Origin: an uncultured Gammaproteobacteria bacterium
Lineage (GTDB): Bacteria > Patescibacteriota > Patescibacteriia > UBA9934
Length of the DNA stretch: 52,902 nucleotides
Direction: 5' to 3'
Assembly (NCBI GenBank): GCA_964613815.1
Contig: CAZTKG010000003.1
Location: 1-52,902 of the forward strand
Of this stretch, positions 11,921-49,156 are shown piece by piece (the stretch's first letter is position 1; the number at the start of each line of letters is the position of its first letter). The notes beneath the pieces were generated by a model that saw only the letters and a program-made list of their open reading frames with translations, was not told the DNA's origin and did no database searches. The position numbers and the translations under genes are program-made.

Positions 11921-13108
11921 TCACGGGAGGAGGCGCAGGTCGACCACCTGCTGCTTGACGGGGCGCGCGGGGCCGAAGAAGTTTCCTTCATGCCACTTGC
12001 CGTCGATGAGAAGGTAGAAGAGTGGCTGCTCGGGCTGACGCCTGCGATCGTTCGTGATGACGCGCGGGGGTGCGAGTGCGGAGACGCCCTCTCGCGTGGT
12101 CGCGATGATGATCGCGTCGGCCTTCTGGATGATGTTCGTCTTCCAGACGATCGCCATACCGCCGCCGTTGAGATCGCCGGTGAATAGGCGCTCGCCGTCG
12201 AACTTGAGCATGTCGATCTCGGCGAGAGGACTGAACCCGCCGATGAAGTTTCGCTTTGCCCTTGGCATGACGACACTGAGCTTCCCATCTGCGATGCCGA
12301 GGGCGGTGTCGCCGAAGGCGTCGTTCTCTGGGAGCTTGACGCGCTCATAGTAGTCACTGACGTAGTCCAGGTGAATGACTCTCGAGCCCTTCTTGTCCTG
12401 AAGGATGAAAACCGGACCGAGCCAACCGGGCATGTGATACAGCTCAGTGACCCTCTCCCCGCAGGCCATCCTGGACCCGGTGTAGATACACTCCTTACCC
12501 TTGAACGGAGCGACGTAGCACATCTTGCCGTTTTCGACATGGGGACGTGCGTCACCTGGTGCCTCGATCTTGGGATAGACCTCCCCCTTCCACACGAGCG
12601 CGTGGAGACCGGCGTACCGACTGGTCTCGTTCTCGAGATGCAGGAACCATGCCTCGGACCCTTCGAAGACACCTGCCGATGTCGCGGTCGTGATCGTCAT
12701 CTTGTCTGCGGACTGATTGGGCCTCAGGATGTAGACCTGGTGCAGCGTGCCGGCATCGTCCCTCAGTCCGCCGAGCGCGACGATGGAGTCGCTTTCTGCC
12801 CTGTAGGGATCCACCTCCCAGCACGGGAGCTCGACGCTGATCTCGATGCGGTAATCGCTCATCTCGGAAGACGCGAACGGACCTTCTTTGAGCACCACAT
12901 CTTCTGGGAGGAGGAAGTTGAACTTCTTGCCGATGACGAGGTTGTGGAACGCTCCGTTCCAGAAAGCGATGTAGCTGCGCTTGTGGTCGCTGTCCTCGAG
13001 GTCTCCCCAGCACTTCTGCTCCGGAGGAGACGACGGTGCAGCGGGCTCCTCGGCGAACGCAGAGGTGGTGAAGAGCGCTAGGAAAAGCGCGATTCGTCGA
13101 ATGAACAT
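11921..13108 (-). CDS. secreted beta-rich hypothetical protein
   Basis: Signal peptide ending SAFA-EE; Gly/aromatic-rich beta-hairpin-like segments; own promoter. Confidence 0.75.
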   Translation of the reverse strand: MFIRRIALFLALFTTSAFAEEPAAPSSPPEQKCWGDLEDSDHKRSYIAFWNGAFHNLVIGKKFNFLLPEDVVLKEGPFASSEMSDYRIEISVELPCWEVDPYRAESDSIVALGGLRDDAGTLHQVYILRPNQSADKMTITTATSAGVFEGSEAWFLHLENETSRYAGLHALVWKGEVYPKIEAPGDARPHVENGKMCYVAPFKGKECIYTGSRMACGERVTELYHMPGWLGPVFILQDKKGSRVIHLDYVSDYYERVKLPENDAFGDTALGIADGKLSVVMPRAKRNFIGGFSPLAEIDMLKFDGERLFTGDLNGGGMAIVWKTNIIQKADAIIIATTREGVSALAPPRVITNDRRRQPEQPLFYLLIDGKWHEGNFFGPARPVKQQVVDLRLLP

Positions 13109-16873: not shown

Positions 16874-16963
16874 AGGACTATCTTGAATCTGATGTGGAAA
16901 GCGCCCGGTTGGGCGCTTTTTTGGTAAAAAAATGACCGACCCGCAGATGCGAATCGGAGAAGG

Positions 16964-17037
16964 TGCGTACAAGGGGATTCGAACCCCTGACCCCCAGGGC
17001 CACAACCTGGTGCTCTAACCAACTGAGCTATGCACGC
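16964..17037 (-). tRNA. trnH: tRNA-His (GTG), no encoded G-1, A73 discriminator
   Basis: GCGTGCATAGCTCAGTTGGTTAGAGCACCAGGTTGTGGCCCTGGGGGTCAGGGGTTCGAATCCCCTTGTACGCA folds as a cloverleaf with GTG anticodon; preceded by C, followed by CCT. Confidence 0.93.
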
Positions 17038-17050
17038 GAAGGAGCTGGCG

Positions 17051-18535
17051 CTACTGTAGCATTCCCATGATTTCCGTCAAGGATTTGCCGTCCTCGAGTG
17101 CCCTGAGGAGGTTACTGATGAAGATCTTCCCCTGCGTCCTGTTTTCCAGGTCTTTGATCTCGACAGCCCCACCCTGGAGCTCTTGATCCCCGGTGATGAT
17201 GAGGTAGCGAATGCCGAGCTTGAGCGCGCGTGCCATCTGAGCCCGGAAAGCTCTGTCGTCACCTTGGTAGAGTTCGGTTGGGATCCCTGCTCGACGGAAG
17301 TCTGCGAGGATGCGGACGATCATGGACATGTCCGTGTCGTTGCCGAAGTTCATGACCAGAACGTCTGATGGGCAGGGTGTGACGTCGGGGAGGTCGCCCA
17401 GGTGCTCGAGTGCGGCGAACAGGCGATCGAAGCCGATGGAGGCTCCGGTTGCCGGAATCTTCGCGCTCGTGAACCTGCTGACCAGGCCGTCGTACCTTCC
17501 GCCGGAATAGACGCTTCCGAAGCTTTCCGCGCCTTCGATGGTGGTTTCGAAGACTGCGCCTGTGTAGTAGCCGAAGCCGCGTGCGATGCTGAGATCGATC
17601 ATATGCTGATTCCGCGGGACCCGCATCAGCTCGAGGAGGCGCTGGATCTCTCGGAGATCTCGGACCCCTACGAGTCCGACCTCACTGCCTTCGAGGATCT
17701 CTTCCAGACCGTCCAAAAGCGGGCGGCCGCTTGTCATGAGGAGCATGAACTCCTCAATGATCGCCAGCTGGCTGTTGTTCAGCGCCAGCGCCGACGTGTC
17801 GTGTTCGTTGTCGGGCGTGCGCGTGAGCATGGCGCGGATGCCGGTGTCCTTCTCCCCCGAACCGTCTTCGGTTGGGACCATCTGGACCCAACCGACCTTC
17901 TCGTACTTGTCGAGAATGCGGAAAAGGAGAAGCGAACGCTGGATCTCTTGACCGCTCTCGTTGTCGATCACGGCTCCGTTGATGCCGAGGATTTCCGCGA
18001 GGCCATTGAGGACCTTTCGAGAACTCCACCTCACCACGAAATCATGCGTGGTGAGGTGACTCATGGCATTGACCATCATGGCGATGATCTCTGCGTCGGC
18101 GAGGACGCTTGCGACCCCCACGACATCGGCGTCGAACTGGTTGAACTGGTAGTAGCGCCCGCTGCCGGTGGTTTCGGCGCGGAACACCGGACCGTGACAC
18201 CAGCGACGCCATGGGAGAACGATGTCGGTGATGTTGGCCGCGACGTAGCGTGCGAGCGGGACCGTCTGGTCGAAGCGCATGGCGATGCGCTGCCGATCGT
18301 CGTCTTCGCCCTTGCCGCCCTTGCGGTCCGGATAGGCGTTCCAGAGCTTTCCGGTTGCCTCGGCTTCTCCGACGAGGACTTCGCGACGCTCGAGCAGCGG
18401 TGTCTCGAGCTCCATGAATCCGTAGCGCTCGTAGACATCCTGAATGAGCATGGCGAGGATGCGCCTCTGCGCAGCGGCCTCTGGGCCATAGTCGTTGAAC
18501 CCACCGAGCTTGGCAGGACTGATAAGAGTCGACAT
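17051..18535 (-). CDS. hisS: histidine--tRNA ligase
   Basis: RFDQTVPLARYVA, QFNQFDADVVG, histidine-binding loop RGFGYYTG, GGRYDGL, GASIGFDRL, C-terminal anticodon-binding domain. Confidence 0.95.
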   Translation of the reverse strand: MSTLISPAKLGGFNDYGPEAAAQRRILAMLIQDVYERYGFMELETPLLERREVLVGEAEATGKLWNAYPDRKGGKGEDDDRQRIAMRFDQTVPLARYVAANITDIVLPWRRWCHGPVFRAETTGSGRYYQFNQFDADVVGVASVLADAEIIAMMVNAMSHLTTHDFVVRWSSRKVLNGLAEILGINGAVIDNESGQEIQRSLLLFRILDKYEKVGWVQMVPTEDGSGEKDTGIRAMLTRTPDNEHDTSALALNNSQLAIIEEFMLLMTSGRPLLDGLEEILEGSEVGLVGVRDLREIQRLLELMRVPRNQHMIDLSIARGFGYYTGAVFETTIEGAESFGSVYSGGRYDGLVSRFTSAKIPATGASIGFDRLFAALEHLGDLPDVTPCPSDVLVMNFGNDTDMSMIVRILADFRRAGIPTELYQGDDRAFRAQMARALKLGIRYLIITGDQELQGGAVEIKDLENRTQGKIFISNLLRALEDGKSLTEIMGMLQ

Positions 18536-18624
18536 GATTCCCTCTGGGTTGTAAATGTGCGCTCCAACCTTGGCGGAATTGCATTATCTTGTCAATCGTG
18601 TTTCAGTGATATCAAATACTATCT

Positions 18625-20157
18625 ATGTTTCATACTATTACTGGTGAGAGCTTAACCATTGAACAAATCGCTGGGGTTGCTCGTAAAAAGGAGCGTATTG
18701 AGATTACGACATCTGCACTTGAGAAGGTTTCGCGTGCGCGAGCGTTTGTGGATGAATTGGTTGCCGGGGATGAGGTCGTTTATGGAATCACGACGGGATT
18801 TGGGCAATTTAAAAATGTAACGATTTCTCGCGATCAGGCTCGGGAATTGCAAGAAAACTTGATTCGATCGCATGCAACGGGAGTTGGCGAGCCACTTCCT
18901 GAGGACCAGGTTCGGGCGAGTATTCTTGTACGACTCAATAGCTTGCTTCGAGGGCATTCTGGGATTCGGCCAGTGGTCGCTGATCGGTTGGTTGATTTAC
19001 TGAATAAAGACGTTTATCCGTATGTGCCCTGCAAAGGATCTGTTGGGTCAAGTGGAGATCTTGCGCCGCTTTCGCATATCATTTTGGTTTTGATGGGCGA
19101 AGGCGAAGTTATTTTAAATGGTGTTCGCGTGCCGTCTGCGTCCGTCCTCGCACAGAAGCAGATTGAGCCCATTGCGCTCATGGCAAAGGAAGGGTTAGCG
19201 CTTAATAACGGGACGTCAGTACAGACCGGTATTGGGGCTTTAGCTGTCCATGATGCAGGGCGTTTGGCCACGGTTTTTGATATTAGTTTAGCGATGAGTT
19301 TAGAGGTCTTGATGGGGTCAGTAGCTGCGTATGATCCTCGTGTACACGCGCTTCGCCCTCATCCTGGACAGATTTCGGTTGCTGAAAACATTAGAAAACT
19401 AACTGCCGAATCTGAGATTGTTGCCTCTCATGAAGACTGCGATCGTATTCAAGATGCGTATTCGCTTCGGTGTGCGCCACAAGTGCATGGAGCCAGCCGA
19501 GATGCGATTCGACATGTTCGAGAAGTCATTACACGGGAGATCAACTCGGTTACGGACAACCCCCTGCTCTTCCCCGCTGATCGTGAGGCGATCAGTGCTG
19601 GGCACTTCCATGGCGAGCCAATTGCGCAAGTTATGGATTATTTGAAGATCGCGGTTTGTGAGTTAGCGAATATCTCGGAACGTCGTATTGCGCGGATCGT
19701 TGATCCGTCTCTTTCTGAGGGGTTGCCGGCGTTTTTGATTCCTGAGGAGCAAGCTGGAATCTCGTCTGGGTTTATGATCCCGCAATATGTGGCAGCAGCA
19801 CTTGTTTCGGAAAACAAGGTCTTAGCGCATCCGGCGTCTGTTGATTCGATCCCTACGTCCGCGAACCAGGAAGACCATGTGAGCATGGGGACGATTGCAG
19901 CTCGACAGGCTTATGAGATTACGCAAAACGCCTTGCAGGTTGCTGTCATCGAGCTTCTTTGCGGGGCGCAGGGAGTGGATTTTCGGAAGCCTCTAAAACC
20001 CGGACATGGTGTAGACGCTGCATATTCATGCATTCGGTCTCATGTCAGCAAGATGGAGCGGGACCGCATCCTGTATACTGACCTTGAAGCTATTTCCTCG
20101 CTAATCCCAGATGAACTTCTCGCTCAAGTAGAATCCTCGACTGGCCAACTTTTGTAG
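18625..20157 (+). CDS. hutH: histidine ammonia-lyase (MIO enzyme)
   Basis: YGITTGFG, LIRSH (His-selective SH), GSVGSSGDLAPL, KEGLALNNGT, QDAYSLRCAPQVHG, GHFHGEP, NQEDHVSMG. Confidence 0.92.
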   Translation: MFHTITGESLTIEQIAGVARKKERIEITTSALEKVSRARAFVDELVAGDEVVYGITTGFGQFKNVTISRDQARELQENLIRSHATGVGEPLPEDQVRASILVRLNSLLRGHSGIRPVVADRLVDLLNKDVYPYVPCKGSVGSSGDLAPLSHIILVLMGEGEVILNGVRVPSASVLAQKQIEPIALMAKEGLALNNGTSVQTGIGALAVHDAGRLATVFDISLAMSLEVLMGSVAAYDPRVHALRPHPGQISVAENIRKLTAESEIVASHEDCDRIQDAYSLRCAPQVHGASRDAIRHVREVITREINSVTDNPLLFPADREAISAGHFHGEPIAQVMDYLKIAVCELANISERRIARIVDPSLSEGLPAFLIPEEQAGISSGFMIPQYVAAALVSENKVLAHPASVDSIPTSANQEDHVSMGTIAARQAYEITQNALQVAVIELLCGAQGVDFRKPLKPGHGVDAAYSCIRSHVSKMERDRILYTDLEAISSLIPDELLAQVESSTGQLL

Positions 20158-20230: not shown

Positions 20231-21022
20231 ATGAGCACTGACCATGGCATTTCCCGTTCCGAAACCGACTACGTCGTGAACGCGGCCGGCGGGAACGGAA
20301 CCGCAATCCACCTGGTGGATACAGATCATGACCGCGCATGGTGTGAGCGCGAAGGCGTTGCACTCATGCAGGAGGAAAAAGATGTCGCAGAGCAGTGCGG
20401 CTTCCTCAATCCGCATACTGGTCATTTCGAGATGGCCGGTGGAGAGTTCTGCGGAAACGCAGCTCGTTCTGCGGCGATGATTCTGTCGCTTGTCCGTGAT
20501 GATGAAGACGAGATCGACTTCGATGTCTCCGGCTACGACGGCACCGTTCATGCCTCCGTGGATTGGCTCGATGGCCCTCGCGCACACGTTCGAGTGACTT
20601 TCGACAATCTGCCCGCAAAAGCTGTTCCTGTCGATGTGGAGGGGGCTGAGAACGCCTGGCTGGTTGATCTTGGCGGGATTGTACACGTCGTGGTCGAGGA
20701 TCGGTTCCCGGCGACGACGTTCCAAGAGCGGCACCGGAGCATCACCGAGAAGCTCGGCCTCGGCCAGCGCGGCTGCGTTGGCGTCTGCTGGCTCAAGCGC
20801 GGTGAAGACGGGCAGCCGGATCATATCGATCCTGTCGTCTGGGTTCGCAGTATCTCGTCGTTCTTCTACGAGTCCGCGTGTGGCTCTGGCAGCATCGCTG
20901 CTGAAGCCGTCACTCATCACTCAAGCATCGAACAGCCGTCCGGTGAGGTGATCTACGTTCACCGCCGCGGCAAGGCCGTTACCCTCCGTAGCGACATGGA
21001 GATCATCCGTGCACACTCGTAG
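20231..21022 (+). CDS. DapF-fold amino-acid racemase/epimerase, histidine racemase (CntK)-like
   Basis: GGNGT, EQCGF, MAGGEFCGNA, PVVWV...ESACGSG and EQPSG mirror the motifs I recall from S. aureus CntK (SGN, EQVGF, MSGNEFCGNA, ENSCGSG, HQPGG); both catalytic Cys present. Confidence 0.8.
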   Translation: MSTDHGISRSETDYVVNAAGGNGTAIHLVDTDHDRAWCEREGVALMQEEKDVAEQCGFLNPHTGHFEMAGGEFCGNAARSAAMILSLVRDDEDEIDFDVSGYDGTVHASVDWLDGPRAHVRVTFDNLPAKAVPVDVEGAENAWLVDLGGIVHVVVEDRFPATTFQERHRSITEKLGLGQRGCVGVCWLKRGEDGQPDHIDPVVWVRSISSFFYESACGSGSIAAEAVTHHSSIEQPSGEVIYVHRRGKAVTLRSDMEIIRAHS

Positions 21023-21584
21023 CCCACTGCCCATTCGACGCGTCACCGATGTCGATGATCCCGCTCGTGATGGATTCATCGATGTGTACAAAGAGGCCTT
21101 TGGTGGCCCTCCGTACAACGAAGATCAGCCCCGTGATTGGGTCCGTGAGCACGTGTGGGGTTTGCATGTTTCTCATTGCCTGTTCGTCTGCGAAGACACT
21201 GACGGCTCTGTGATCGGCATGTCTTGCGCGCTTCCCGTGCTTGCGCCGGGAGCTGAGGCGTGCGGAAACTTCCTCTCTGGCTGCAGCGGGATCCCGTTTG
21301 ATTTGAGGGATGCAATCTATATGTCTGAAGTTGGCGTCGCTGTGCGCGCTCGTCGACGTGGACTTGGTACTCGTCTCATCCGCGCTCGGATTGCCTGGGG
21401 TCTCGAGAACGACTTTGGACACTTCGTGATGCGTACCGCGAGTGCAGGATCTCATTCTGCCGGCATCTACCTTCGCATGGGATGCACACAACTCCCCCAT
21501 GTGCAGAACGTTGGCGGCGAAGACGTCGCTTCAGCGAGTAGTCATCGCATCTATATCTTTGGCCCGACCAGCTTGGCGGCCTAG
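21009..21584 (+). CDS. GNAT family N-acetyltransferase
   Basis: YMSEVGVAVRARRRGLGTRL acetyl-CoA motif A; GIYLRMGC motif B. Confidence 0.85.
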   Translation: MHTRSPLPIRRVTDVDDPARDGFIDVYKEAFGGPPYNEDQPRDWVREHVWGLHVSHCLFVCEDTDGSVIGMSCALPVLAPGAEACGNFLSGCSGIPFDLRDAIYMSEVGVAVRARRRGLGTRLIRARIAWGLENDFGHFVMRTASAGSHSAGIYLRMGCTQLPHVQNVGGEDVASASSHRIYIFGPTSLAA

Positions 21585-21606
21585 ATACGAGCTTCGGCTC
21601 GTTTTT

Positions 21607-22260
21607 TTATCGGTAAATTTTGTCGTAAATTGCCTTTGCCTTTTTGTAATACCAGGCCCACTCTTTATCTCCGTAAGAAAAATGCCACCATTCATAGTCA
21701 AAAGGAGCGAATCCTTGTTTCATGAGCAGCTCTCTTAGAATGGTCCTATTTTCCTTTTGTACCTCGCCTACATCCTTCGCAAAGAACTGAATCTTTTTCG
21801 TATTTGAGAAATCTCCGACTCCTGTCCCCATGTCAATTTCCTTGCCGTTTATTGCTATTGTAATGTCTATTGCGCCTCCCGTGATGTGCCCCGCAACATC
21901 TGGAGATGCGGAAAGTAAATGAGCTGTCTTTACGAGGTCTTTTTCCGGCACTCCCTGCTTCCGAAATTCTTCAACTCGCTTGTTGAAATACATCTCTTGA
22001 ACGTCCGGATGCCTGTATGAATAAGCCAAGTCTAGCTGTGCCTCTGGCATGAGTTTAATTAACTCTTTTGCTGCTTTTTTAAGCATTTTTGCCACTTTTT
22101 TCCGAATCAAAAAGTCTTCACCGATCCGCGATATCATGTCTTTTTTTCTGTAATTACATGCGATTTCTGGTGCGAACTCTTGAACTACAACCAATTCTTC
22201 CCCACATTCTGTCGTTGGGATATCAACCAGATCTTTATATTGCGCGAATCTTGGCTCCAT
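21607..22260 (-). CDS. M15D D-alanyl-D-alanine dipeptidase-like (VanX/DdpX family)
   Basis: SYRHPDVQ, GHITGGAID, DMGT, YEWWHFSYGD; visibly AT-rich compared with the flanks. Confidence 0.88.
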   Translation of the reverse strand: MEPRFAQYKDLVDIPTTECGEELVVVQEFAPEIACNYRKKDMISRIGEDFLIRKKVAKMLKKAAKELIKLMPEAQLDLAYSYRHPDVQEMYFNKRVEEFRKQGVPEKDLVKTAHLLSASPDVAGHITGGAIDITIAINGKEIDMGTGVGDFSNTKKIQFFAKDVGEVQKENRTILRELLMKQGFAPFDYEWWHFSYGDKEWAWYYKKAKAIYDKIYR

Positions 22261-22327
22261 ATATTCTTCGTATTGACTTTCATCTTAGCCCCTGTAATCT
22301 ATTAGTGCAACTTTTTTTGGAGGAAAG

Positions 22328-22896
22328 ATGTCTCTTCCTGACGGTATCTTGATTCGTCGCGTGACGGATCCGAGGGACCCTGCACGTGCGGGGTTTGTAC
22401 GTCTGTATCGCGAGGCGTTTGCGGCAGCTCCCTATCATGAGAGCTGGACTGTCGACGAGGTTCGCGGGACTTGGGCAACGTATGTTCCGCATGGCTTGTT
22501 CGTTGCGGAAGATGCGGATGGTGAGGTGATCGGGTTTGGGTGTGTGAAGCCGCTTCAGATCGGTGATGAACCGTCCACGTCCGTGCAGTACATGATCGAT
22601 CACCATGACGGCACGCTGCCGTTTGATCCGACGTCAACGGCGCACATGGGCGACGTTGCAGTGGATGCGATGACGCGCGGACTTGGGATCGGGACGGCGC
22701 TTGTACGTGCGCGGCTTCGGTGGGCGCATGACGAAGGGTTTGACTGCAGACCGCTCATGAAGGGTCGCATTCTGCGGGGATCTACCGTCGACTTGGGTGC
22801 CAAGAGCTGCCGGTGCGGATTCCGACGAGCATCTACAACAAGCCTTCGGCGAATACGCACAACATTGTTCTTTGGCGCCTGGTCTGCCCGTTCTAA
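22328..22896 (+). pseudogene. GNAT family N-acetyltransferase paralog with a frameshift near 22745-22750
   Basis: N-terminus is paralogous to 21009..21584 (IRRVTD..DPAR.GF..Y.EAF...PY). The conserved tail TAHEGSHSAGIYRRLGCQELP is in another frame that ends at TAA 22894-22896. Confidence 0.75.
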
Positions 22897-22967
22897 GACC
22901 TTCAATCACGAAACTTCTCGTGATTTTTTTGTATAAAAAGGCCCTCCTTGTGGGAGGACGTGTGCTT

Positions 22968-24212
22968 CTAGGCCGCGAAGCGATTGAGGAGCTCGATGAG
23001 GCCGTCGCGGTAGGCGACAAGACTGTCAAGGTCGACCCATTCGTCTGGGCTGTGAGCGTTTCCGTTCATGGGCGCCATACAAATTGCTGTTGCGTCTGGA
23101 CACTTCGATGCCAGCATAGCGATGTCGATGTAGCCGAAGTCATGCGGACTCACACGTGCGCCGCCGTGTACAGCTTCGGTAGCCGAAGTGATGTCGTCAG
23201 GAGCGCCATCTGGAGATATATAGTGGTCATGAGCGAAGCGCTCTACGAAAAGCTCGATCCTGCATGTATGCAAGCCGCCCTTCTTCACGTGCTGCTCGTT
23301 CCACCTCGCAACCGCCTCTTCTACTACTTTACGCACAGCGATCATGCTGACGTGTGGACCTCCGGGACGGATATCAACGCGCGCCCAAGCTGCATTCGGG
23401 ATCTTATTCGCCTTGAACCCCACGTTCGGGATTGGCGCCTCGAGATCCTTGACGTCGTCGACCTTGACTGGGATCTCTGCCCCAGGTTCAAGCGAGCCAG
23501 CCTTGATAGCAGCCACATTGCAGGAAGTCGGGATATCCCCACCTGCATTCTCGCAGAAATCCTGCAAGGCCCTCACCGTCTCACACATTGCGAAAACGGC
23601 GTTCGCCCCCTCGTGTTGACGGGCCGCGTGACCACTGTTGCCTGCGATGACGAAGTCGAACTCCATACATCCGCGGCATGATCTGAGAATCTTGGCCTTT
23701 GCGCCGCAGACGCTCAGCATCTGTTGCGGACGAATCTCAGGATGATCCCGAACAAAGGCCTCCATGCCCTTGAACAACGTCTCTTCATCACTGTAGAAAA
23801 GTAGCGCGACCCTGTCGGTCCTCCCTGCTCGGCGAACGGCATCCAGGATACCTGCGATACCACCCTTTGCATCACTGGCGCCGAGAGCGTAGTAGCGTCC
23901 GTTCTGAATGACGTGCTCCTCTACCGTCCAACCACTTGACGGCTCGACCGTGTCGAGGTGTCCAATGATGAGGAGCTCAACCTCCTTCTCTGAGCCACTG
24001 AGAGCGAGTAGATTTGGGCGCTGGACCTCCCCGTCTTGAATGTTCTCGATACTGACCTGAAGCCATGGCGCGTGCTCTTCGAGATAGAGCTTGATCGCGA
24101 TGGCAAATTCATGTTCACTTGCCTTGTCTTTTTTCCAGAAGCTCGGGATGCGACAGAGTGCATCGACAAGCTGGATGACAGATTCGGAATGAATGGCTTG
24201 GCTATGCGTCAT
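22968..24212 (-). CDS. M20 family metallopeptidase/deacylase (ArgE/DapE-like)
   Basis: GHLDTV, GASDAKGG, SDEE, GHAA, AHSPDEW; start placed at ATG 24212. Confidence 0.88.
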   Translation of the reverse strand: MTHSQAIHSESVIQLVDALCRIPSFWKKDKASEHEFAIAIKLYLEEHAPWLQVSIENIQDGEVQRPNLLALSGSEKEVELLIIGHLDTVEPSSGWTVEEHVIQNGRYYALGASDAKGGIAGILDAVRRAGRTDRVALLFYSDEETLFKGMEAFVRDHPEIRPQQMLSVCGAKAKILRSCRGCMEFDFVIAGNSGHAARQHEGANAVFAMCETVRALQDFCENAGGDIPTSCNVAAIKAGSLEPGAEIPVKVDDVKDLEAPIPNVGFKANKIPNAAWARVDIRPGGPHVSMIAVRKVVEEAVARWNEQHVKKGGLHTCRIELFVERFAHDHYISPDGAPDDITSATEAVHGGARVSPHDFGYIDIAMLASKCPDATAICMAPMNGNAHSPDEWVDLDSLVAYRDGLIELLNRFAA

Positions 24213-24314
24213 AGATCTTCTCTTGTGAAAGGTGCGCCTAGATCTTACCTGAAATTGATCGTAAAACAAGAAATATGTCAACAGCAAAAAACCCCCTCGT
24301 AAGAGGGAGTCTTT

Positions 24315-25723: not shown

Positions 25724-26425
25724 CTACGGGGCCTGCTGCTTGCTGCGGTAGCTCTGGGCGACCTTTGTGATCATGCTCGACCAAGGTTCGCCAATCTTCG
25801 TGACCGTGTTGATGCGCTTGACCTCGAGGAGATCCAGCGCTGCCTGTAGCGGGGCACTTGCCTCGATGAAGACCTCGAGCTGGCCGGGAGCAATGAGGCG
25901 ACCGGTCATGAGGAGGTCCATCGCGATGTCCATGACCTTACCCTCAGACGCAGGCGTGGCTTGCGCTGCCTGGGTCCAGGTTGCGACCTCGGCTTCGATC
26001 TCGCTCTTGAGTTCCGTCATCCGCTTGAAGACGAGCTGCGTGTGACCGAGGGAGAGGTCTGCCATGCGGTCCAGGACCGAGACCATGAAGTCGACGCTGC
26101 GAGGCCACTCGATCCGCGGCGGGCGGTCGAACTGACCGCTCATGAGGGAGGCGATCTGAGCGTAGCTGCCGTCCTTGCCGGGCGATGCGGTCGCGACGGC
26201 CATGATGAGCTCTTCGGCCTTCTTGACGACAGTCATCGCGCGGCTCTCGAGTGCGTTCGCCCAGATGATCTCGATGATTCCTGAGACCGACGTGAGGGAG
26301 AACAGGAGGAGCGTCAGCTTGGCGACACTGCCCTTGTTGTCGATGTCGTAGCTGAGCGTGAGCGCGGTGAGAGAGGCGCAGACGACGAGAATTGCCCTGT
26401 TTGCCAGGCGAAGTTTGTTTGACAT
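25724..26425 (-). CDS. two-TM hypothetical protein, probable paralog array member 2 (most divergent)
   Basis: Two N-terminal TM helices with an NKG loop; C-terminal LIAPGQL...IGEPW; start placed at ATG 26425. Confidence 0.7.
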   Translation of the reverse strand: MSNKLRLANRAILVVCASLTALTLSYDIDNKGSVAKLTLLLFSLTSVSGIIEIIWANALESRAMTVVKKAEELIMAVATASPGKDGSYAQIASLMSGQFDRPPRIEWPRSVDFMVSVLDRMADLSLGHTQLVFKRMTELKSEIEAEVATWTQAAQATPASEGKVMDIAMDLLMTGRLIAPGQLEVFIEASAPLQAALDLLEVKRINTVTKIGEPWSSMITKVAQSYRSKQQAP

Positions 26426-26457
26426 GCAAGACTCCTGTGGAAGGTGCGTTGGGCCTG

Positions 26458-26486
26458 AAGTTAGCATTTTTTGTGGTTTTTGTCAA
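26458..26486 (-). promoter_or_regulatory. sigma70-type promoter
   Basis: TTGACA-N17(ending TGC)-TAACTT upstream of ATG 26425. Confidence 0.6.
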
Positions 26487-28965: not shown

Positions 28966-29817
28966 CTACTCGGGGGCGAGGGCAGCGACGCGGGGCGTGA
29001 TCGGCAGGAACTCGGGGACGGTGAAGTTCGGGTTCCGGTTGCCGATGTTGAGGCCCTCGACGACGATGCCGCTCGTCCTGGTCCGGTCCGGACCGATCGT
29101 CGGGATGAAGGTTCCGAACTGGCCCTTGGCGATGGCGTAGCGGAGGCCGGCCATGGCCATGCCGGGAAGCTCGCCCATGGACAGGGCCTTGAGGAGCTGC
29201 GGGAACTGCCAGAGCAGGGCCAGGAGCTCGATGCCCATGGAGCTCGTGCTCCTCGCGTCGGCGATGGAGCGTCGAACGGCGTGGCTGCTGAGATCGCAGG
29301 CGAACCACTCCAGGCCGGTGGCGACAGCTCGACTCCGACGGAACGGTCGGAGCGCGTCGGGGAGCTCCATCCAGACCGTGCCCGGGATCTCGAGCTCGGC
29401 GCCGAGGCGGCGGAGGATCTCCATGTTGGCGACGAACTCTCCCTGGATTTCGTCGGCGAGGTTGATGCGGACGCCGAGGAAGCTCATCGGCCCCTTCGGC
29501 CAGGACGGCGCTGCGGCGATGATGCGATCGATCTCCGCTTCGGGGATCTCGAGGTCGTACGCGTAGGCGGCGGCCTCGACCTGAGCGACGATGTCCTCGG
29601 GGTCCTTCTGGAAGGGGTTCTCGAGGTCGAGACGCAGGGCGTGCGAGATGGCCTGGGTCATCAGCTCCTTGCTGTCGGGGTCGCGCATGCGACCGTCGAG
29701 GCGATCGATGTCGACGTTGTTCGCGATCACGGTCGCGAGTCCGAGGACGTTGCCTGTGTAGGCGCGGAAGCGTCGCTGATCTGCGACTTCCTGAGCGGCG
29801 GTGGATTCTGCGGACAT
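28966..29817 (-). CDS. hypothetical protein
   Basis: Strong GC-rich codon bias; consensus promoter upstream; start placed at ATG 29817. Confidence 0.72.
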   Translation of the reverse strand: MSAESTAAQEVADQRRFRAYTGNVLGLATVIANNVDIDRLDGRMRDPDSKELMTQAISHALRLDLENPFQKDPEDIVAQVEAAAYAYDLEIPEAEIDRIIAAAPSWPKGPMSFLGVRINLADEIQGEFVANMEILRRLGAELEIPGTVWMELPDALRPFRRSRAVATGLEWFACDLSSHAVRRSIADARSTSSMGIELLALLWQFPQLLKALSMGELPGMAMAGLRYAIAKGQFGTFIPTIGPDRTRTSGIVVEGLNIGNRNPNFTVPEFLPITPRVAALAPE

Positions 29818-29872
29818 GATGGTCTCCTGATGGATGGAATGATCGGGGTGTGCACGGGTGTACAACTGGCGA

Positions 29873-29901
29873 ATATTAGCAGACTTCGTCGATTTTGTCA
29901 A
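29873..29901 (-). promoter_or_regulatory. sigma70-type promoter
   Basis: TTGACA-N17(ending TGC)-TAATAT. Confidence 0.6.
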
Positions 29902-30195: not shown

Positions 30196-30296
30196 GACCC
30201 TTACACGACTGCCGAAAATCACGGCAGTCGTTTTGTATAAGGGTCCGCATCTGAAGCGCTTAGGCGCGGGCCCTGATGCAGGGCTCGCGCTCTTTT
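30196..30296 (+). promoter_or_regulatory. structured 5' leader with terminator-like hairpin
   Basis: Stem GACCCTTA..GACTGCCG/CGGCAGTC..TAAGGGTC (30196-30245), then GCGCGGGCCCTG/CAGGGCTCGCGC + TCTTTT ending 15 nt before the racemase ATG. Confidence 0.5.
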
Positions 30297-30311
30297 ACAC
30301 GAGGAAAACGA

Positions 30312-30992
30312 ATGAAGACGATTGGAATTGTTGGCGGTCTTGGGCCGCTTGCGGGCATCTCGTTTGCTCAGCATTTGGTTGAAATCGGACAGGAAATGGG
30401 GTTTGCCGCAGACCAGCAGCATGCTCCGTGGATCCTGATGAATCGTCCTGGCGATGTGCCGGATAGAACAGATTCGCTCCTTCTGGGTGGCGTGGACTTT
30501 GTCCCGCCAATCCTGGACCAGCTCGCAGCGCTCAGGCGCTCGGGTGCGGACGTCGGGGTGATTGCGTGCAATACGGCGCATGTAGCTTGGGAGATGATTC
30601 GTCAGGCGGCGCCGATGCCGATGATGAGCATTGTTCACGAGACGGTTCGGTACGTTTGTGATCGATATCCGTCTGGAAACATTGGATTGTTGGCGACGGA
30701 TGGATCTTTGAAGCTTCGGCTGTATGCAGATCCACTTGAAGCGGCTGGCTACGAGGTTTTGACGCCTCGTTCGCGCTCTGTGCATGACGCTATTCTGGCC
30801 ATTAAGGCTGGGCGTCTCATGCATGCGCGGCGGATTCTGAGTCGTTGCGCTGGTGAACTGGAAGATCGTGACTGCTCGGCGATTGTGCTTGGCTGTACCG
30901 AGATTCCGCTTGCTCTGAAGTCTTTCCCTACCCCCCTCATCAACCCCACGCGTATTTTGGCTGAGGCTGCGATGCGCTTTTCCCTGGAGTAA
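30312..30992 (+). CDS. aspartate/glutamate racemase family protein
   Basis: MKTIGIVGGLGP, VPDRT, IACNTAH, GLLATDGS, VLGCTEIPL; both catalytic Cys present. Confidence 0.92.
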   Translation: MKTIGIVGGLGPLAGISFAQHLVEIGQEMGFAADQQHAPWILMNRPGDVPDRTDSLLLGGVDFVPPILDQLAALRRSGADVGVIACNTAHVAWEMIRQAAPMPMMSIVHETVRYVCDRYPSGNIGLLATDGSLKLRLYADPLEAAGYEVLTPRSRSVHDAILAIKAGRLMHARRILSRCAGELEDRDCSAIVLGCTEIPLALKSFPTPLINPTRILAEAAMRFSLE

Positions 30993-35755: not shown

Positions 35756-36643
35756 TCAAGGGATTGCGCTGGGACCGTCGCAGCTTGTGCGGAGGATTCC
35801 GGTCTTGAGAGCGATGGCACCGGCGCTGATGCCGGCGCGTTGCCACCAGTCGGTTGCGCCTTCGAGATAGCTCTCTTGGCACAGGAAGTGATCCCAAGGC
35901 AAGATGACCTCTTGCTCCGTCATGTTGTCCCAGTATCGGTCCGACATGCAGCCCTGTGAGTTGGGGTACTGCTGAACGTAGCGCTCGGCGACCTTGGCTG
36001 CTCCGCGCTGCGCCATTTCGACCTGGCCGAGCTCCATCAGTTCGGTGTAGCCAGTGAGATGGAGGTCGTCTTCGATGCGATAGCCACAGCCCTCGCAGTA
36101 GCCGATGGATCCGTCCATGGCGATCTTGGCCGCATGGGTGCGCCAGGTCTCGATGTCCTCGGTCATGCCGAGTTCAGCAGCGAGCGCGGCCATGCGCATA
36201 GAGATGCCGCCGCGGATGGAATCGTCGTACGGATCCCGATTGTGTGGCATGAAGCATGGATCGTAGGCGCCCGTGCTGTAGTCGGCGAAGTTGCCGAAGT
36301 CGAGCATCGCGCGCGGAGGCGAGACGTCGAACTCTGGTCCATCTGGGTGACCGACACGAACGCGCATACGCTCGATGGCCCAGTCGTAGTAGTCGACAGC
36401 GTCGCTGCGCCACTCGTCCGAATCGTGCCTCACGAGCGCGATGAAGAGCTCAGGGTTGAGATCGATGAGGCTCTCGGTCTGGTGCTTCGCGACAGCGTCC
36501 CTGATCGTCTGCGGGCTTGGGCCCAGGAGCGCGGTGATGCCAGCGATACTGGCGTTGCGGGAGACTTCGTCGTCCCAGTTGACCTGCTGACATTCGCCTT
36601 GCGCGGCGATTGCGGCTGCGGTGATGAAGGAAAGTACGAGCAT
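35756..36643 (-). CDS. secreted Cys-containing hypothetical protein, paralog B
   Basis: Signal peptide (MLVLSFITAAAIAAQG); motifs shared with paralog A. Confidence 0.78.
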   Translation of the reverse strand: MLVLSFITAAAIAAQGECQQVNWDDEVSRNASIAGITALLGPSPQTIRDAVAKHQTESLIDLNPELFIALVRHDSDEWRSDAVDYYDWAIERMRVRVGHPDGPEFDVSPPRAMLDFGNFADYSTGAYDPCFMPHNRDPYDDSIRGGISMRMAALAAELGMTEDIETWRTHAAKIAMDGSIGYCEGCGYRIEDDLHLTGYTELMELGQVEMAQRGAAKVAERYVQQYPNSQGCMSDRYWDNMTEQEVILPWDHFLCQESYLEGATDWWQRAGISAGAIALKTGILRTSCDGPSAIP

Positions 36644-44243: not shown

Positions 44244-45635
44244 TTAAGCGTTTAAGCGTTTTCTGACGTGATCAGCGACTTCGCTGATGTTTACTCGCTC
44301 CTGTTTCATGGTGTCGCGGTCTCGGATCGTGACAGCCTGATCCTCTAGAGAATCGAAATCTATGGTAATGCAAAGTGGGGTGCCGATTTCGTCCTGACGG
44401 CGGTAGCGCTTTCCGATGGATTGCGTTTCGTCGTAGTCGACATTCCAATGAGGTGATAGTCGGTCTAGGACGGCTTTTGATAATTCCTGAAGGTCTGGCT
44501 TTTTGGAGAGCGGGAGGACAGCAGCTTTGAACGGAGCCAGTCTCGGGTGGAATCGGAGGACGGTTCTGGTGTCGACTTTCCCGTCTGCGGATCTGATCTC
44601 TTCCTCGTCGTATGCCTCGAGCATAGCCATTAGGGTGAGGCGGGAGAGGCCGAAGGTTGGCTCTACGACATGGGGGGTGAATTTTTCGTTTGTTGTTGGG
44701 TCTTGATAGCTGAGATCTTTTCCTGAGTGTTCGGCGTGGTTCTTGAGATCAAAATCGGTCCTGTACGCGAGCCCGAACATCTCCTTCCATCCAAACGGCG
44801 TGTTGTATTCGATGTCCACGGTGCGTTTTGAGTAGTGTGAGAGTTCGTCCTTTGTATGCTCTCGGACGCGGGTTGATTCTGATTTGAAATTCATCTCTGC
44901 GAGCCAGGATTTCATTTCTTCAAGCCATGCGTTGAAATGCGTTTCCCAGTTTTCTTCGCGAATGAAGTACTCGAATTCCATCAGATCGAATTCCAGGGTG
45001 CGGAAAATGAAGTTTCCTGGAGTGATTTCGTTTCTGAAGACTTTTCCGACGGAAGCGATACCGAATGGGAGGCGCTTTCGGGATGTTTGGAGGACGTTTT
45101 TGAAGTTGACGAACATAGCTTGCGCGATCTCTCCTCGGAGGTAGACGCGATCCTTAGCGTCGGCTGTTTTTCCGATGGAGGTCTCGAACATTAAGTTAAA
45201 CTTTCTTGCGTCCGTGAACTGATCTTTATTGCCGCATTTTGGGCAAGCAAGGTCTTTTTCTTTGATGATTGCCGTGAGCTCCTCTGGAGAAAGGCCATCG
45301 ACTTTGAGGTCGGGATGCGCGTTCTCGATGAGGTGATCGGCTCGGTGACGCGCTTTGCAGGCTCGACAGTCAATGAGCGCGTCGTCGAAATTAGCGACAT
45401 GACCAGATGCCTGCCAGACTTTTGGATTCATCATGATTGCGGCATCGATACCGACCATGTCTGTGCGTTGGTGAACGAATCGTTGCCACCACCAATCGCG
45501 GATATTGTTTTTGAGCTCAGTTCCGAGCGGCCCAAAGTCCCAGGAGTTTGCGAGACCTCCGTAAATATCAGAACCGGGGAAGATGAATCCCCGTTTCTTT
45601 GTTAGGTTTACCAGCTTGTCCATGGTGACAGGCAT
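44244..45635 (-). CDS. glyQS: glycine--tRNA ligase (homodimeric type)
   Basis: RGFIFPGSDIYGG, FNLMF, YLRGEIAQ, FRNEITPGNFIFRTLEF, VVEPTFG, IGKRYRRQDEIGTP. Confidence 0.96.
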   Translation of the reverse strand: MPVTMDKLVNLTKKRGFIFPGSDIYGGLANSWDFGPLGTELKNNIRDWWWQRFVHQRTDMVGIDAAIMMNPKVWQASGHVANFDDALIDCRACKARHRADHLIENAHPDLKVDGLSPEELTAIIKEKDLACPKCGNKDQFTDARKFNLMFETSIGKTADAKDRVYLRGEIAQAMFVNFKNVLQTSRKRLPFGIASVGKVFRNEITPGNFIFRTLEFDLMEFEYFIREENWETHFNAWLEEMKSWLAEMNFKSESTRVREHTKDELSHYSKRTVDIEYNTPFGWKEMFGLAYRTDFDLKNHAEHSGKDLSYQDPTTNEKFTPHVVEPTFGLSRLTLMAMLEAYDEEEIRSADGKVDTRTVLRFHPRLAPFKAAVLPLSKKPDLQELSKAVLDRLSPHWNVDYDETQSIGKRYRRQDEIGTPLCITIDFDSLEDQAVTIRDRDTMKQERVNISEVADHVRKRLNA

Positions 45636-48466: not shown

Positions 48467-49156
48467 ATGGAGAACGAAATGACTCAGCGTGAGAACAACG
48501 GACGGCGCGGCGGACGTAGCAAGCGCGGACGGCGAGACGAGCGGCGGCCCCGGGAGACCGGTGGCAGCCAGGCGGAACAGAAGCTCCGCAACGCTCCAAG
48601 CCCGTTCGTCATCGGCGTCGATGCCCTGCACGGGTGGCGGCGCGGCGACGAGCCCTACTTCGCGAACGAAAAGCGGATGATGATGGCGCCCCTCAGGGCC
48701 CTCGTGGTCCTGGTGGGCACCAAGTTCGTGCGCGGTGGCCCGCATGCCATGCGGCGAGTGGCCGAGATCGGCTGTCAGGTCAAGCTCGAGTTCTTCCCCC
48801 AGGACGACCGGGTCCCGTACCCGGATACGGCCTGGATGGAGATGCGAAAGGCGAATGACGATGCGGCCGCAACCGAGCTCCTCATGTGGGCCCATCGTGC
48901 AGGCGTCTGCGTCTTGGATCTCGTCCCCACGGACGACATCCAGCGCTTCCGCTTCGAGAGCGACGCGGAGGCCGCGGCGCGAATCCTCGATGCCCTCAAG
49001 CCCGAGTTCGTGAGCGCAGCGGCGGCTATGATGGCTTCGGCCGGCATCGAGCTGCCCGCACCCGAGCCCGCCCCTGAGGCCGATGGCGAGGGCGAGGACC
49101 TCGAGCCGCCCGTCAACCTCGACGCGGCACGGGCCGCGCTCGAGGGCAATTCGTAG
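48467..49156 (+). CDS. hypothetical protein with Arg/Gly-rich N-terminus and acidic Pro-rich C-terminus
   Basis: 229 aa; GC-rich codon bias; upstream TTGACA-N17-TATATT. Confidence 0.7.
   Translation: MENEMTQRENNGRRGGRSKRGRRDERRPRETGGSQAEQKLRNAPSPFVIGVDALHGWRRGDEPYFANEKRMMMAPLRALVVLVGTKFVRGGPHAMRRVAEIGCQVKLEFFPQDDRVPYPDTAWMEMRKANDDAAATELLMWAHRAGVCVLDLVPTDDIQRFRFESDAEAAARILDALKPEFVSAAAAMMASAGIELPAPEPAPEADGEGEDLEPPVNLDAARAALEGNS

Follow-up and report, generated by a model that had tools for sequence, protein, structure and literature searches.

Few identity marks of tRNAs are as conserved as the guanosine at position -1 (G-1) of histidine tRNA (tRNA-His), and the histidyl-tRNA synthetases (HisRS) of E. 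coli and yeast lose more than 100-fold in efficiency without it (PMC3064791). The 52,902-nucleotide stretch analysed here, from contig CAZTKG010000003.1 of assembly GCA_964613815.1 (the window hereafter), carries a tRNA-His gene with no encoded G-1 directly after the gene of a divergent HisRS, which in turn adjoins the histidine ammonia-lyase gene hutH. We call the two genes tRNA-His2 and hisS2, and the enzyme HisRS2. The locus raises two questions, namely whether HisRS2 charges tRNA-His2 independently of G-1 and whether the pair is the only histidine-charging system of its organism or a second one. Judged from the sequences of both partners, the pair is very probably functional and G-1-independent, and we lean slightly towards the reading that it forms a self-contained accessory second histidine-charging unit coupled to histidine catabolism.

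tRNA-His2 and HisRS2

ARAGORN and Rfam agree on a tRNA-His with anticodon GTG on the minus strand (start 16962 or 16964, to 17037), matched by RF00005 at full length with 71.2 bits (gathering threshold 29), and it is the sole tRNA-His among the five tRNAs of the window. Between the hisS2 stop (ending at 17051) and tRNA position 1 lie 13 nt on the same strand (17050-17038), as an earlier note on this DNA had described, and its account of the tRNA itself is borne out by the minus-strand sequence: base -1 is C (17038), the acceptor stem reads GCGTGCA/TGTACGC with G1:C72 and G5:U68, the discriminator is A73 (16964) and CCA is incomplete, C74 and C75 being encoded and position 76 being T. The D-arm, set between TA and A, is GCTC AGTTGGTTA GAGC, the anticodon arm CCAGG TTGTGGC CCTGG, the variable region GGGTC and the T-arm AGGGG TTCGAAT CCCCT, with ...ccttc as the 5' flank before G1.

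The loop of HisRS motif 2 found in this enzyme, x-T-G-x-G-R-Y-(H/Y/S), is limited to seven protein clusters (P0002-P0008, 43-54% identity, one of them named Uhrbacteria), referred to below as the clade, and more distant HisRS homologues all carry K/R-P-Q-x-G-R-x-R. A tRNA-His lies within ~ 60 nt downstream of hisS2 on the same strand in six of the seven distinct clade loci; since the linkage is repeated across the clade, the adjacency in the window is not due to chance. Base -1 of the six tRNAs is C, A, A, A, T and T, never G, and four of them have A at N73, the other two U. Hence an encoded G-1 pairing with C73 is found neither in the window nor in its relatives, and the alphaproteobacterial-type combination of no encoded G-1 with A73 is present in the window, two clade members having U73. 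All six, the window included, share G1:C72 and G3:C70, so that neither G1:U72, an identity element for Caulobacter HisRS, nor the conserved acceptor-stem C:G pair of that type occurs. The D-loop has 9 nt in the window and L089 (AGTTGGTTA or AATTGGTTA) and 7-8 nt in L006, L007, L086 and L088.

Over the six tRNAs, 126 of 126 helix cells are paired, nine pairs show compensatory double changes and the covariation score was matched by none of 500 shuffles. Because of this full pairing, the compensatory changes and the shuffling result, the clade tRNA-His2 genes are predicted to be functional and under selection. Furthermore, TTGACC or TTGACA together with -10-like hexamers precede the tRNA in L086, L088 and L089, and a hairpin followed by a T-run comes after it in L088 and L089. 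A tRNA gene in decay or without expression, beside a relic HisRS, is thus exceedingly improbable: the incomplete CCA (CCT) and the G5:U68 wobble could be taken in this sense, but the cloverleaf is perfect with its compensatory changes over six orthologues, promoter-like and terminator-like sites flank the tRNA, the placement is conserved between enzymes of only 43-54% identity, and hisS2 has an uninterrupted frame in which the catalytic residues are retained.

HisRS2 scores 300.9 bits against TIGR00442 hisS (cut-off 286.75), as a class IIa HisRS, and contains the Pfam domains PF13393 (tRNA-synt_His) and PF03129 (HGTP_anticodon). Its AlphaFold2 (AF2) model has a pLDDT of 87.2, and the best Foldseek matches of this model are all HisRS (6nhi, 3net and human HisRS, TM 0.73-0.83). 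In an alignment of 16 sequences, HisRS2 and 15 homologues, the residues of HisA (ARGFGYYTGAVFE), HisB (GGRYD) and motif 3 (GASIGFDRL) are invariant, and the catalytic residues are invariant or kept (R119, E121, R127, A318-R319-G320, Y323-Y324, F329-E330, G345-G346-R347 and G364..D370-R371), as predicted for a catalytically intact type-2 HisRS. A 14-residue insertion at residues ~ 219-232 (the VPTEDGSGEKDTGI region, 17840-17881), missing from all 15 aligned homologues, lies in the insertion domain and forms a small beta-hairpin in the AF2 model.

The motif-2 loop reads FRAETTGSGRYYQF and lacks R-P-Q, in agreement with the earlier note. Aligned without gaps via canonical HisRS, E. coli E115 R116 P117 Q118 K119 G120 R121 Y122 R123 correspond to E121 T122 T123 G124 S125 G126 R127 Y128 Y129 of the window. 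Hence R116 is replaced by T, Q118 by G and R123 by Y (H or S in relatives), E115 and R121 are retained, and T122, G124 and Y129 stand where the canonical G-1:C73 loop has its R, Q and R. According to the complex of T. thermophilus HisRS with tRNA (PMC4357726), the salt bridges to the G-1 5'-phosphate are made by R115 and R122, the counterparts of E. coli R116 and R123, whereas Q117 (E. coli Q118) contacts the 71/72 backbone and the Glu and the middle Arg read A76 and C74. By this correspondence, neither arginine of the phosphate clamp is left in HisRS2, which keeps the readers of A76 and C74. Its G124 provides the alphaproteobacterial-type Gly at the Gln118 position, and G118 is the key residue in Caulobacter HisRS (PMC4338351).

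In a neighbour-joining (NJ) tree of 154 HisRS, the clade is monophyletic and nested among P-Q-containing type-2 enzymes of other bacteria of the Candidate Phyla Radiation (CPR), far from a clade of KPGPGR loops whose linked tRNAs have G1:U72 and A73. Since the tree sets the two clades apart, the Gln-to-Gly change looks convergent between them. JGI metagenomes held one further clade member only, the partial L140 (L140:11-2531), which lies beside a hutH of 68% identity. Its intermediate loop (WRGDTPGAGRYR / WRGDTPGAGRYRQF) has the first Arg and the Gln replaced and the Pro and the second Arg kept, and may represent a step toward the TTG-type loop.

From these features a course of events can be proposed for tRNA-His2. 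It would be transcribed by read-through from hisS2, from its own promoter in the hisS2 3' end, or from both. RNase P would be expected to cut at +1, because C-1 cannot pair with A73, so that the mature tRNA would begin at G1, and the CCA-adding enzyme would supply A76. HisRS2 is then expected to charge it without G-1, because both phosphate-binding arginines are lost and Gln118 has become Gly, presumably by way of the anticodon and of acceptor-stem or backbone features. Charging of this kind has been demonstrated biochemically with the Caulobacter, Acanthamoeba and Trypanosoma enzymes, and all characterised G-1-independent HisRS rely on the anticodon (PMC3064791, PMC4338351).

Alternatively, a Thg1 or Thg1-like enzyme could add G-1 after transcription, HisRS2 being still G-1-dependent. 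A73 with no encoded G-1 and a eukaryote-like type-2 HisRS is indeed the eukaryotic arrangement, and enzymes of a sister clade with the loop WRGEKPQAGR keep K-P-Q and Arg, yet their linked tRNAs have no G-1, so that in that clade it may be added after transcription. However, such an addition is disfavoured, and in our view highly improbable, because both arginines facing the G-1 5'-phosphate are gone in the clade and because position 73 holds A in some clade tRNAs and U in others, which speaks against conservation of a -1:73 pair. Addition by bacterial Thg1-like proteins is template-directed, so that A73 or U73 would call for U or A at -1 and not for G. Moreover, no Pfam Thg1 family was found among the 31 window open reading frames (ORFs) scanned.

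Accessory pair or sole histidine system

The relatives of the window bear directly on the second question. On the 3.8-kb contig L086, hutH diverges from hisS2, which is followed by a tRNA-His (no G-1, A73) and then by a convergent gene for a canonical type-1 HisRS with the loop FRYDRPQAGRYRQF. This enzyme has more than 100 close homologues (61-77% identity), of which the taxon-named ones are nearly all Uhrbacteria or Patescibacteria; type-1 is the ordinary HisRS of the lineage, and hisS2, with its seven clusters, is rare. Likewise, the Uhrbacteria metagenome-assembled genome (MAG) GCA_030688135.1 carries hisS2 and its tRNA on JAUYIW010000057 (L006) and a type-1 HisRS (P0303) on JAUYIW010000067. 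Hence the two closest HisRS2 relatives with sufficient context hold both enzymes. The type-1 hisS is usually preceded by a signal-peptidase S26 gene.

Because the usual HisRS of the lineage is type-1 and the closest relatives carry both, the pair is probably an accessory second one in the genome of the window as well. The proposal of the earlier note can thus be divided. Its co-evolved G-1-independent unit is supported, as -1 is never G, N73 is A or U, the clamps and Q118 are replaced and the tRNA linkage is kept. What is not supported is its implication that the organism has this as its own, Caulobacter-like histidine system.

A sole housekeeping system would mean that the canonical G-1:C73 system was completely displaced in this CPR lineage, as happened in the Rhizobiales-Caulobacterales group of alphaproteobacteria. 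Several observations agree with such a replacement: hisS2 and tRNA-His2 are the only hisS and tRNA-His in 52.9 kb, CPR genomes are small and rarely redundant, HisRS2 is catalytically intact, the type-1 HisRS of the same samples belongs to a different organism, and the lineages of the window and of L007, which differ in composition from L006 and L086, may have lost hisS1. We nevertheless consider it rather unlikely, given that L086 and the L006 MAG retain a type-1 HisRS, that type-1 is the common Uhrbacteria HisRS while hisS2 is rare, and that an invariant hutH link is typical of an accessory, condition-specific module.

Several points weigh against an accessory unit coupled to histidine catabolism. 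Neither a type-1 hisS nor a second tRNA-His lies within the 52.9-kb window, and P0276, the one type-1 HisRS that these metagenomes yielded, was assigned to another organism on account of the composition of its DNA, with a GC of 47% versus 54% and a tetranucleotide correlation to the window of r = 0.68, compared with 0.90-0.94 within the window. The two-enzyme state of MAG GCA_030688135.1 depends on correct binning, and the clade member L087 has no tRNA directly downstream of its hisS2. As for the catabolic part, no T-box or other histidine-sensing element was found, Rfam at the gathering threshold giving only the five tRNAs in the window, and the physiological link with hutH is drawn by analogy.

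Other candidates for a second HisRS were rejected. The other class IIa aminoacyl-tRNA synthetase (aaRS) of the window (44244-45635) is a glycyl-tRNA synthetase (GlyRS; NF003211, 648.7 bits), and the type-1 enzymes P0250, P0315, P0288 and P0325 come from other, unrelated samples.

If the pair is accessory, the resident canonical, G-1-dependent HisRS would charge tRNA-His2 poorly, and HisRS2 would be unable to rely on the resident G-1 tRNA-His, as is suggested by the strict co-inheritance of the tRNA with hisS2. The two would hence make a closed, probably orthogonal pair whose members must move together. The G-1 independence, the orthogonality and the identity elements of the clade pairs are all predictions from sequence.

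The hutH module, neighbouring genes and host

The hutH product scores 684.9 bits against TIGR01225 (cut-off 539), at equivalog level. The gene divergently adjoins hisS2 in every clade locus with upstream sequence (the window, L006, L007, L086, L088, L089/L090 and L140), the clade copies being 58-72% identical; the earlier note did not mention this neighbour. In the window the histidine-catabolic gene thus stands 89 nt from hisS2, as in a catabolic island, and hisS2, tRNA-His2 and the divergent hutH are a module conserved across a small clade whose enzymes share 43-54% identity. In the spacer between hutH and hisS2, a TTGACA-like hexamer for hisS2 is kept in all six relatives and an opposite-strand hutH hexamer (TTGACG or TTGACA) is present in the five relatives. 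A riboswitch, T-box or shared operator in this spacer was considered and set aside, as only promoter-like hexamers were seen there. No phage carrying the hisS2 cassette was found in IMG/VR.

By analogy with other histidine-catabolic clusters, the module may keep His-tRNA charged while HutH drains histidine or when histidine is scarce. We put forward this buffering role tentatively, being inclined to doubt it; the hutH link nonetheless turns it into a testable hypothesis, in which translation is protected while histidine is burnt.

Table 1. Features of the hisS2 locus and of the adjoining genes, in window coordinates
Feature	Positions	Strand	Basis
tRNA-His(GUG), tRNA-His2	16964-17037	-	ARAGORN and Rfam RF00005
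hisS2, divergent type-2 (eukaryote/archaea-like) HisRS, 494 aa	17051-18535	-	TIGR00442, Pfam, AF2 fold
Motif-2 loop FRAETTGSGRYYQF, HisRS residues 118-131	18143-18184	-	ORF translation and alignment
Promoter-like site TTGACG-16 nt-TACAGT, TG-extended -10, within the hisS2 3' end just upstream of the tRNA	17053-17080	-	Consensus match only
Terminator-like hairpin and T-run directly after the tRNA	16926-16957	-	9-bp stem with 6 GC pairs, then TCATTTTTTT
Divergent spacer hisS2/hutH, 89 nt	18536-18624		Promoter-like hexamers
hutH, histidine ammonia-lyase, 510 aa, divergent from hisS2	18625-20157	+	TIGR01225
CntK-like (histidine-racemase-like) gene, 263 aa	20231-21022	+	Precomputed Pfam CntK_N; weak NCBIfam matches
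GNAT acetyltransferase-fold gene, 191 aa	21009-21584	+	PF00583, 31.8 bits

Downstream of hutH (20231-24287) follow the CntK-like gene, two GNAT-fold genes (21009-21584 and 22328-22936) with paralogous N-termini, and genes for a VanX-like D-Ala-D-Ala dipeptidase (21607-22260) and for an M20 ArgE/DapE-family deacylase (22968-24287); farther along the window, an Asp/Glu racemase (30276-30992) is encoded, as are S58 and M24 peptidases. This gene content suggests scavenging of peptides and D-amino acids. The CntK-like gene carries CntK_N in the precomputed Pfam annotation of the window's contigs, but a direct hmmscan found no Pfam family, and its matches to the NCBIfam histidine-racemase models (48 and 44 bits) are weak and far below the cut-off. 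Its homologues adjoin a type-2 hisS in L089, L012, L021, L083 and L146, and homologues of the GNAT gene at 21009-21584 occur in L089, L012, L021 and L101. Both kinds of gene follow hutH in the window and in L089.

This recurrent company of hisS2 in distant loci (hutH, CntK-like and GNAT-fold genes), together with the GNAT folds of several aminoacyl-tRNA transferases, could point to a non-translational use. His-tRNA-His2 would then not decode CAY codons but would either supply a transferase that depends on tRNA, for which the neighbouring GNAT-fold protein would be an example, as its dedicated donor, or sense histidine in the regulation of hutH. We hold this to be improbable. Indeed, the tRNA is a standard elongator (GUG anticodon, conserved T-loop and D-loop, 7-bp acceptor stem, 71-bit Rfam score), only hutH is invariant and HutH acts on free histidine, and L006 and L007 have neither the GNAT nor the CntK-like gene.

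Concerning the host, the window GlyRS shows 68-75% identity to GlyRS named Uhrbacteria, Parcubacteria or Patescibacteria, and identical copies of the hisS2 locus occur on marine metagenome contigs of up to 200 kb. Many window ORFs have no Pfam family, which fits a CPR bacterium. The host is, by these sequence neighbours, identified as a marine Uhrbacteria-like CPR bacterium, and an alphaproteobacterial host was rejected as the neighbours of both GlyRS and HisRS are CPR/Uhrbacteria. Of the fetched loci, the one closest to the window in tetranucleotide composition (r = 0.87, GC 55%) is L007 (CAYFME010000009.1), which bears the label 'uncultured Gammaproteobacteria' and shares with the Uhrbacteria locus L006 a 'MKR(K/R)(F/L)QIGVMGSAADL...' gene of ~ 178 aa (putatively LOG-like). 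Its label is probably wrong, and L007 seems to be a relative of the window organism.

The GC content at third codon positions (GC3) of hisS2 is 0.78, compared with a window mean of 0.605 (standard deviation 0.115). A recent horizontal transfer could not be established from this composition, since window GC3 is bimodal and about a dozen genes are equally high. Indeed, some genes lie at ~ 0.45-0.6 and others at 0.7-0.87, the latter group comprising hisS2 and ~ 12 ORFs, most of them without a Pfam family (for instance 11921-13108, 25724-26467, 28966-29901, 35756-36643 and 48467-49156). The bimodality could reflect expression level, strand or foreign origin.

Linked pairs beyond the clade and comparison with known systems

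Genome and metagenome collections were scanned for type-2 hisS genes with a linked tRNA-His, and such genes are common. In the WRGEKPQAGR clade (12 loci) the tRNA is immediately downstream; ten loci with the loop WRGEKPQAGR(F/Y)REF (L016, L095, L101, L127, L130, L132, L135, L136, L138 and L161) have T or C at -1 and A73 and keep K-P-Q and Arg, the tRNA of L133 is not scorable, and L121, with WRGERPQAGR, has the canonical G-1:C73. Several WRGEKPQAGR loci have hutH nearby. The rule of the earlier note that absence of R-P-Q goes with absence of G-1 is therefore not general, as this clade also has A73 and no G-1. For the window clade, the double arginine loss would provide independent support for the loss of G-1.

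Four Acidobacteriota loci (L024, L026, L027 and L029) carry a tRNA-His with G1:U72, A73 and no G-1 directly upstream of a KPGPGR-type HisRS with the loop WRADKPGPGRFREF, so that the alphaproteobacterial-type pair seems to be present in Acidobacteriota as a linked cassette. In the Phycisphaerales L037 and L053, a tRNA-His with A73, G1:C72 and C at -1 lies ~ 2.7 kb upstream of HisRS on the same strand, and the HisRS has a different, longer motif-2 loop (WRCDNPYEKRGRFREF). The tRNA-His genes L018:9606-9762 (two tandem copies), L096:9460-9534 and L145:9428-9502, all linked to type-2 hisS, combine C73 with C or A at -1 and thus encode no G-1; a Thg1-like protein may add G-1 to these tRNAs in a templated manner, or they may represent another identity variant.

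Homologues of hutH lie within 10 kb of a type-2 hisS in at least 20 loci, and CntK-like and GNAT genes do so in several. Two HisRS genes occur in one locus in L083, L146, L046 and L145. In L083:5793-11342 (Falkowbacteria UBA12426) and L146:3793-9342 (a 309-kb metagenome contig), ~ 3 kb separate a type-1 hisS from a type-2 hisS, a CntK-like gene lying in between, and no tRNA-His was present in the fetched DNA. L046:3934-11218 (Lewinellaceae, Bacteroidota) has a HisRS with the loop FRFEVKIDPGRFREF directly after a tRNA-His (C1:G72, A73, no G-1), then a hutH-like gene, and its second HisRS has 681 aa and the loop FRGESPQSGRYREF. L145:288-9502 (Ga0268276_1000018, 209 kb) holds two HisRS/tRNA-His pairs within 9 kb, on both sides of hutH: first a tRNA-His (G-1:C73, CCA) and a HisRS with the loop FRDGPIKLGRYREF, then hutH, and as the second pair a HisRS with the loop YRAESPQEGRYREF followed by a tRNA-His with C at -1, C73 and no CCA.

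Taken more widely, G-1-less hisS-tRNA-His cassettes might be a widespread, mobile plug-in second histidine-charging system, often coupled to hutH, coexisting with the canonical pair and used conditionally (for instance during histidine catabolism or limitation), in CPR, Gammaproteobacteria-labelled MAGs and Bacteroidota, with comparable linked pairs in Acidobacteriota and Planctomycetota. We regard this generalisation as quite possible, although it is somewhat doubtful. If true, the view that among bacteria only ~ 20 alphaproteobacteria have a G-1-less tRNA-His would be overturned, two naturally orthogonal HisRS/tRNA-His pairs would read the same codons in one cell, and an exchange of identity rules could come about when an orthogonal pair is acquired by transfer and one of the two pairs is then lost. 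Indeed, two probably orthogonal pairs for one amino acid in one genome would be a plausible intermediate in such an exchange.

The literature of 2015-2023 knows one alphaproteobacterial group as the only bacterial exception to G-1 (PMC4338351, PMC9976931), in the words of Rao et al. 2015 'the only exceptions ... identified to date'. In the searchable literature we found no G-1-less bacterial pair outside alphaproteobacteria, no hisS-tRNA-His cassette, no coexistence with a canonical HisRS and no hutH link. The present survey adds G-1-less tRNA-His genes, each linked to a divergent HisRS, in several other phyla.

The nearest precedent is the G-1-less HisRS/tRNA-His pair of Rhizobiales-Caulobacterales-Rhodobacterales alphaproteobacteria (Wang 2007 and Ardell & Andersson 2006, as cited in PMC3064791, PMC4338351 and PMC9976931; Yuan 2011, PMC3064791), whose co-evolved HisRS and orthogonality to E. 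coli have been known since 2006-2011 (PMC3064791). Like it, the window has no encoded G-1, A73 and a Gly at the Gln118 position, and G-1-independent, anticodon-based recognition and orthogonality to the canonical system are expected in common. The 9-nt D-loop with U20a of that type is seen in the window tRNA but is not uniform in the clade. The differences are however considerable. The Caulobacter enzyme prefers G1:U72 whereas the window tRNA has G1:C72 with G:C at 3:70, and relatives of the window have U73 and shorter D-loops. The loop T-T-G-S-G-R-Y-Y is without both phosphate arginines, whereas the KPGPGRFR loop, taken as the alphaproteobacterial type, keeps K and R, so that the clade enzyme has changed more radically than that of Caulobacter. 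Furthermore, the window tRNA is linked to hisS, the host is CPR, the enzyme falls in a separate NJ clade, and its relatives keep a canonical HisRS beside it instead of having replaced it.

The idea of an orthogonal pair for genetic code expansion has already been published for the Caulobacter pair, where reliance on the anticodon limits suppressor use (PMC3064791). The clade plausibly offers new candidate orthogonal pairs for this end, by analogy subject to the same limit if they are anticodon-dependent; the use is hence plausible, not a new idea and probably constrained by anticodon recognition.

Among eukaryotes, the type-2 HisRS of Acanthamoeba castellanii and Trypanosoma brucei charge tRNA-His without G-1, with no need of a 5'-phosphate and in an anticodon-dependent manner, and A. 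castellanii encodes both a canonical and a non-canonical HisRS (PMC3561963, PMC4338351). These enzymes differ from HisRS2 in being eukaryotic, in having other motif-2 changes (no Gly118 equivalent) and in lacking linkage to a tRNA gene.

An accessory HisRS near histidine catabolism is known from the histidine decarboxylase (hdc) island of lactobacilli, whose second hisS (hisRS2) was proposed to protect His-tRNA charging while histidine is consumed (PMC4122935, PMC5313534). Both there and in the window a catalytically intact HisRS, an extra one there and probably here, belongs to a histidine-catabolic cluster, which is mobile in lactobacilli. The hdc island has HdcA, a His T-box leader and a canonical loop, whereas the window has HutH, no T-box, a tRNA of its own and a switched identity. 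The gene list of the Lactobacillus parabuchneri island contains an unnamed 'tRNA' gene, FAM21731_00896, directly beside hisS (PMC5313534, Table 2).

The genetic arrangement resembles the TrpRS-A/tRNA-Trp(A73) operon of CPR, which sometimes stands beside a canonical bacterial TrpRS (Mukai et al. 2017, PMC5370408). There as here, a non-canonical aaRS and its own tRNA are adjacent on one strand (with a 13-nt gap in the window, and in six of seven clade loci), and the unit has a linked gene that concerns the amino acid it charges, the trp repressor in one case and hutH in the other. The window differs in concerning His rather than Trp, in switching identity by G-1 loss and not by a discriminator change, and in having no ORF1-like partner. 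The TrpRS-A operon nonetheless sometimes adjoins the canonical aaRS gene, as in L086, and TrpRS-A coexists with the canonical pair, much as hisS2 stands beside a type-1 HisRS in L086 and in MAG GCA_030688135.1.

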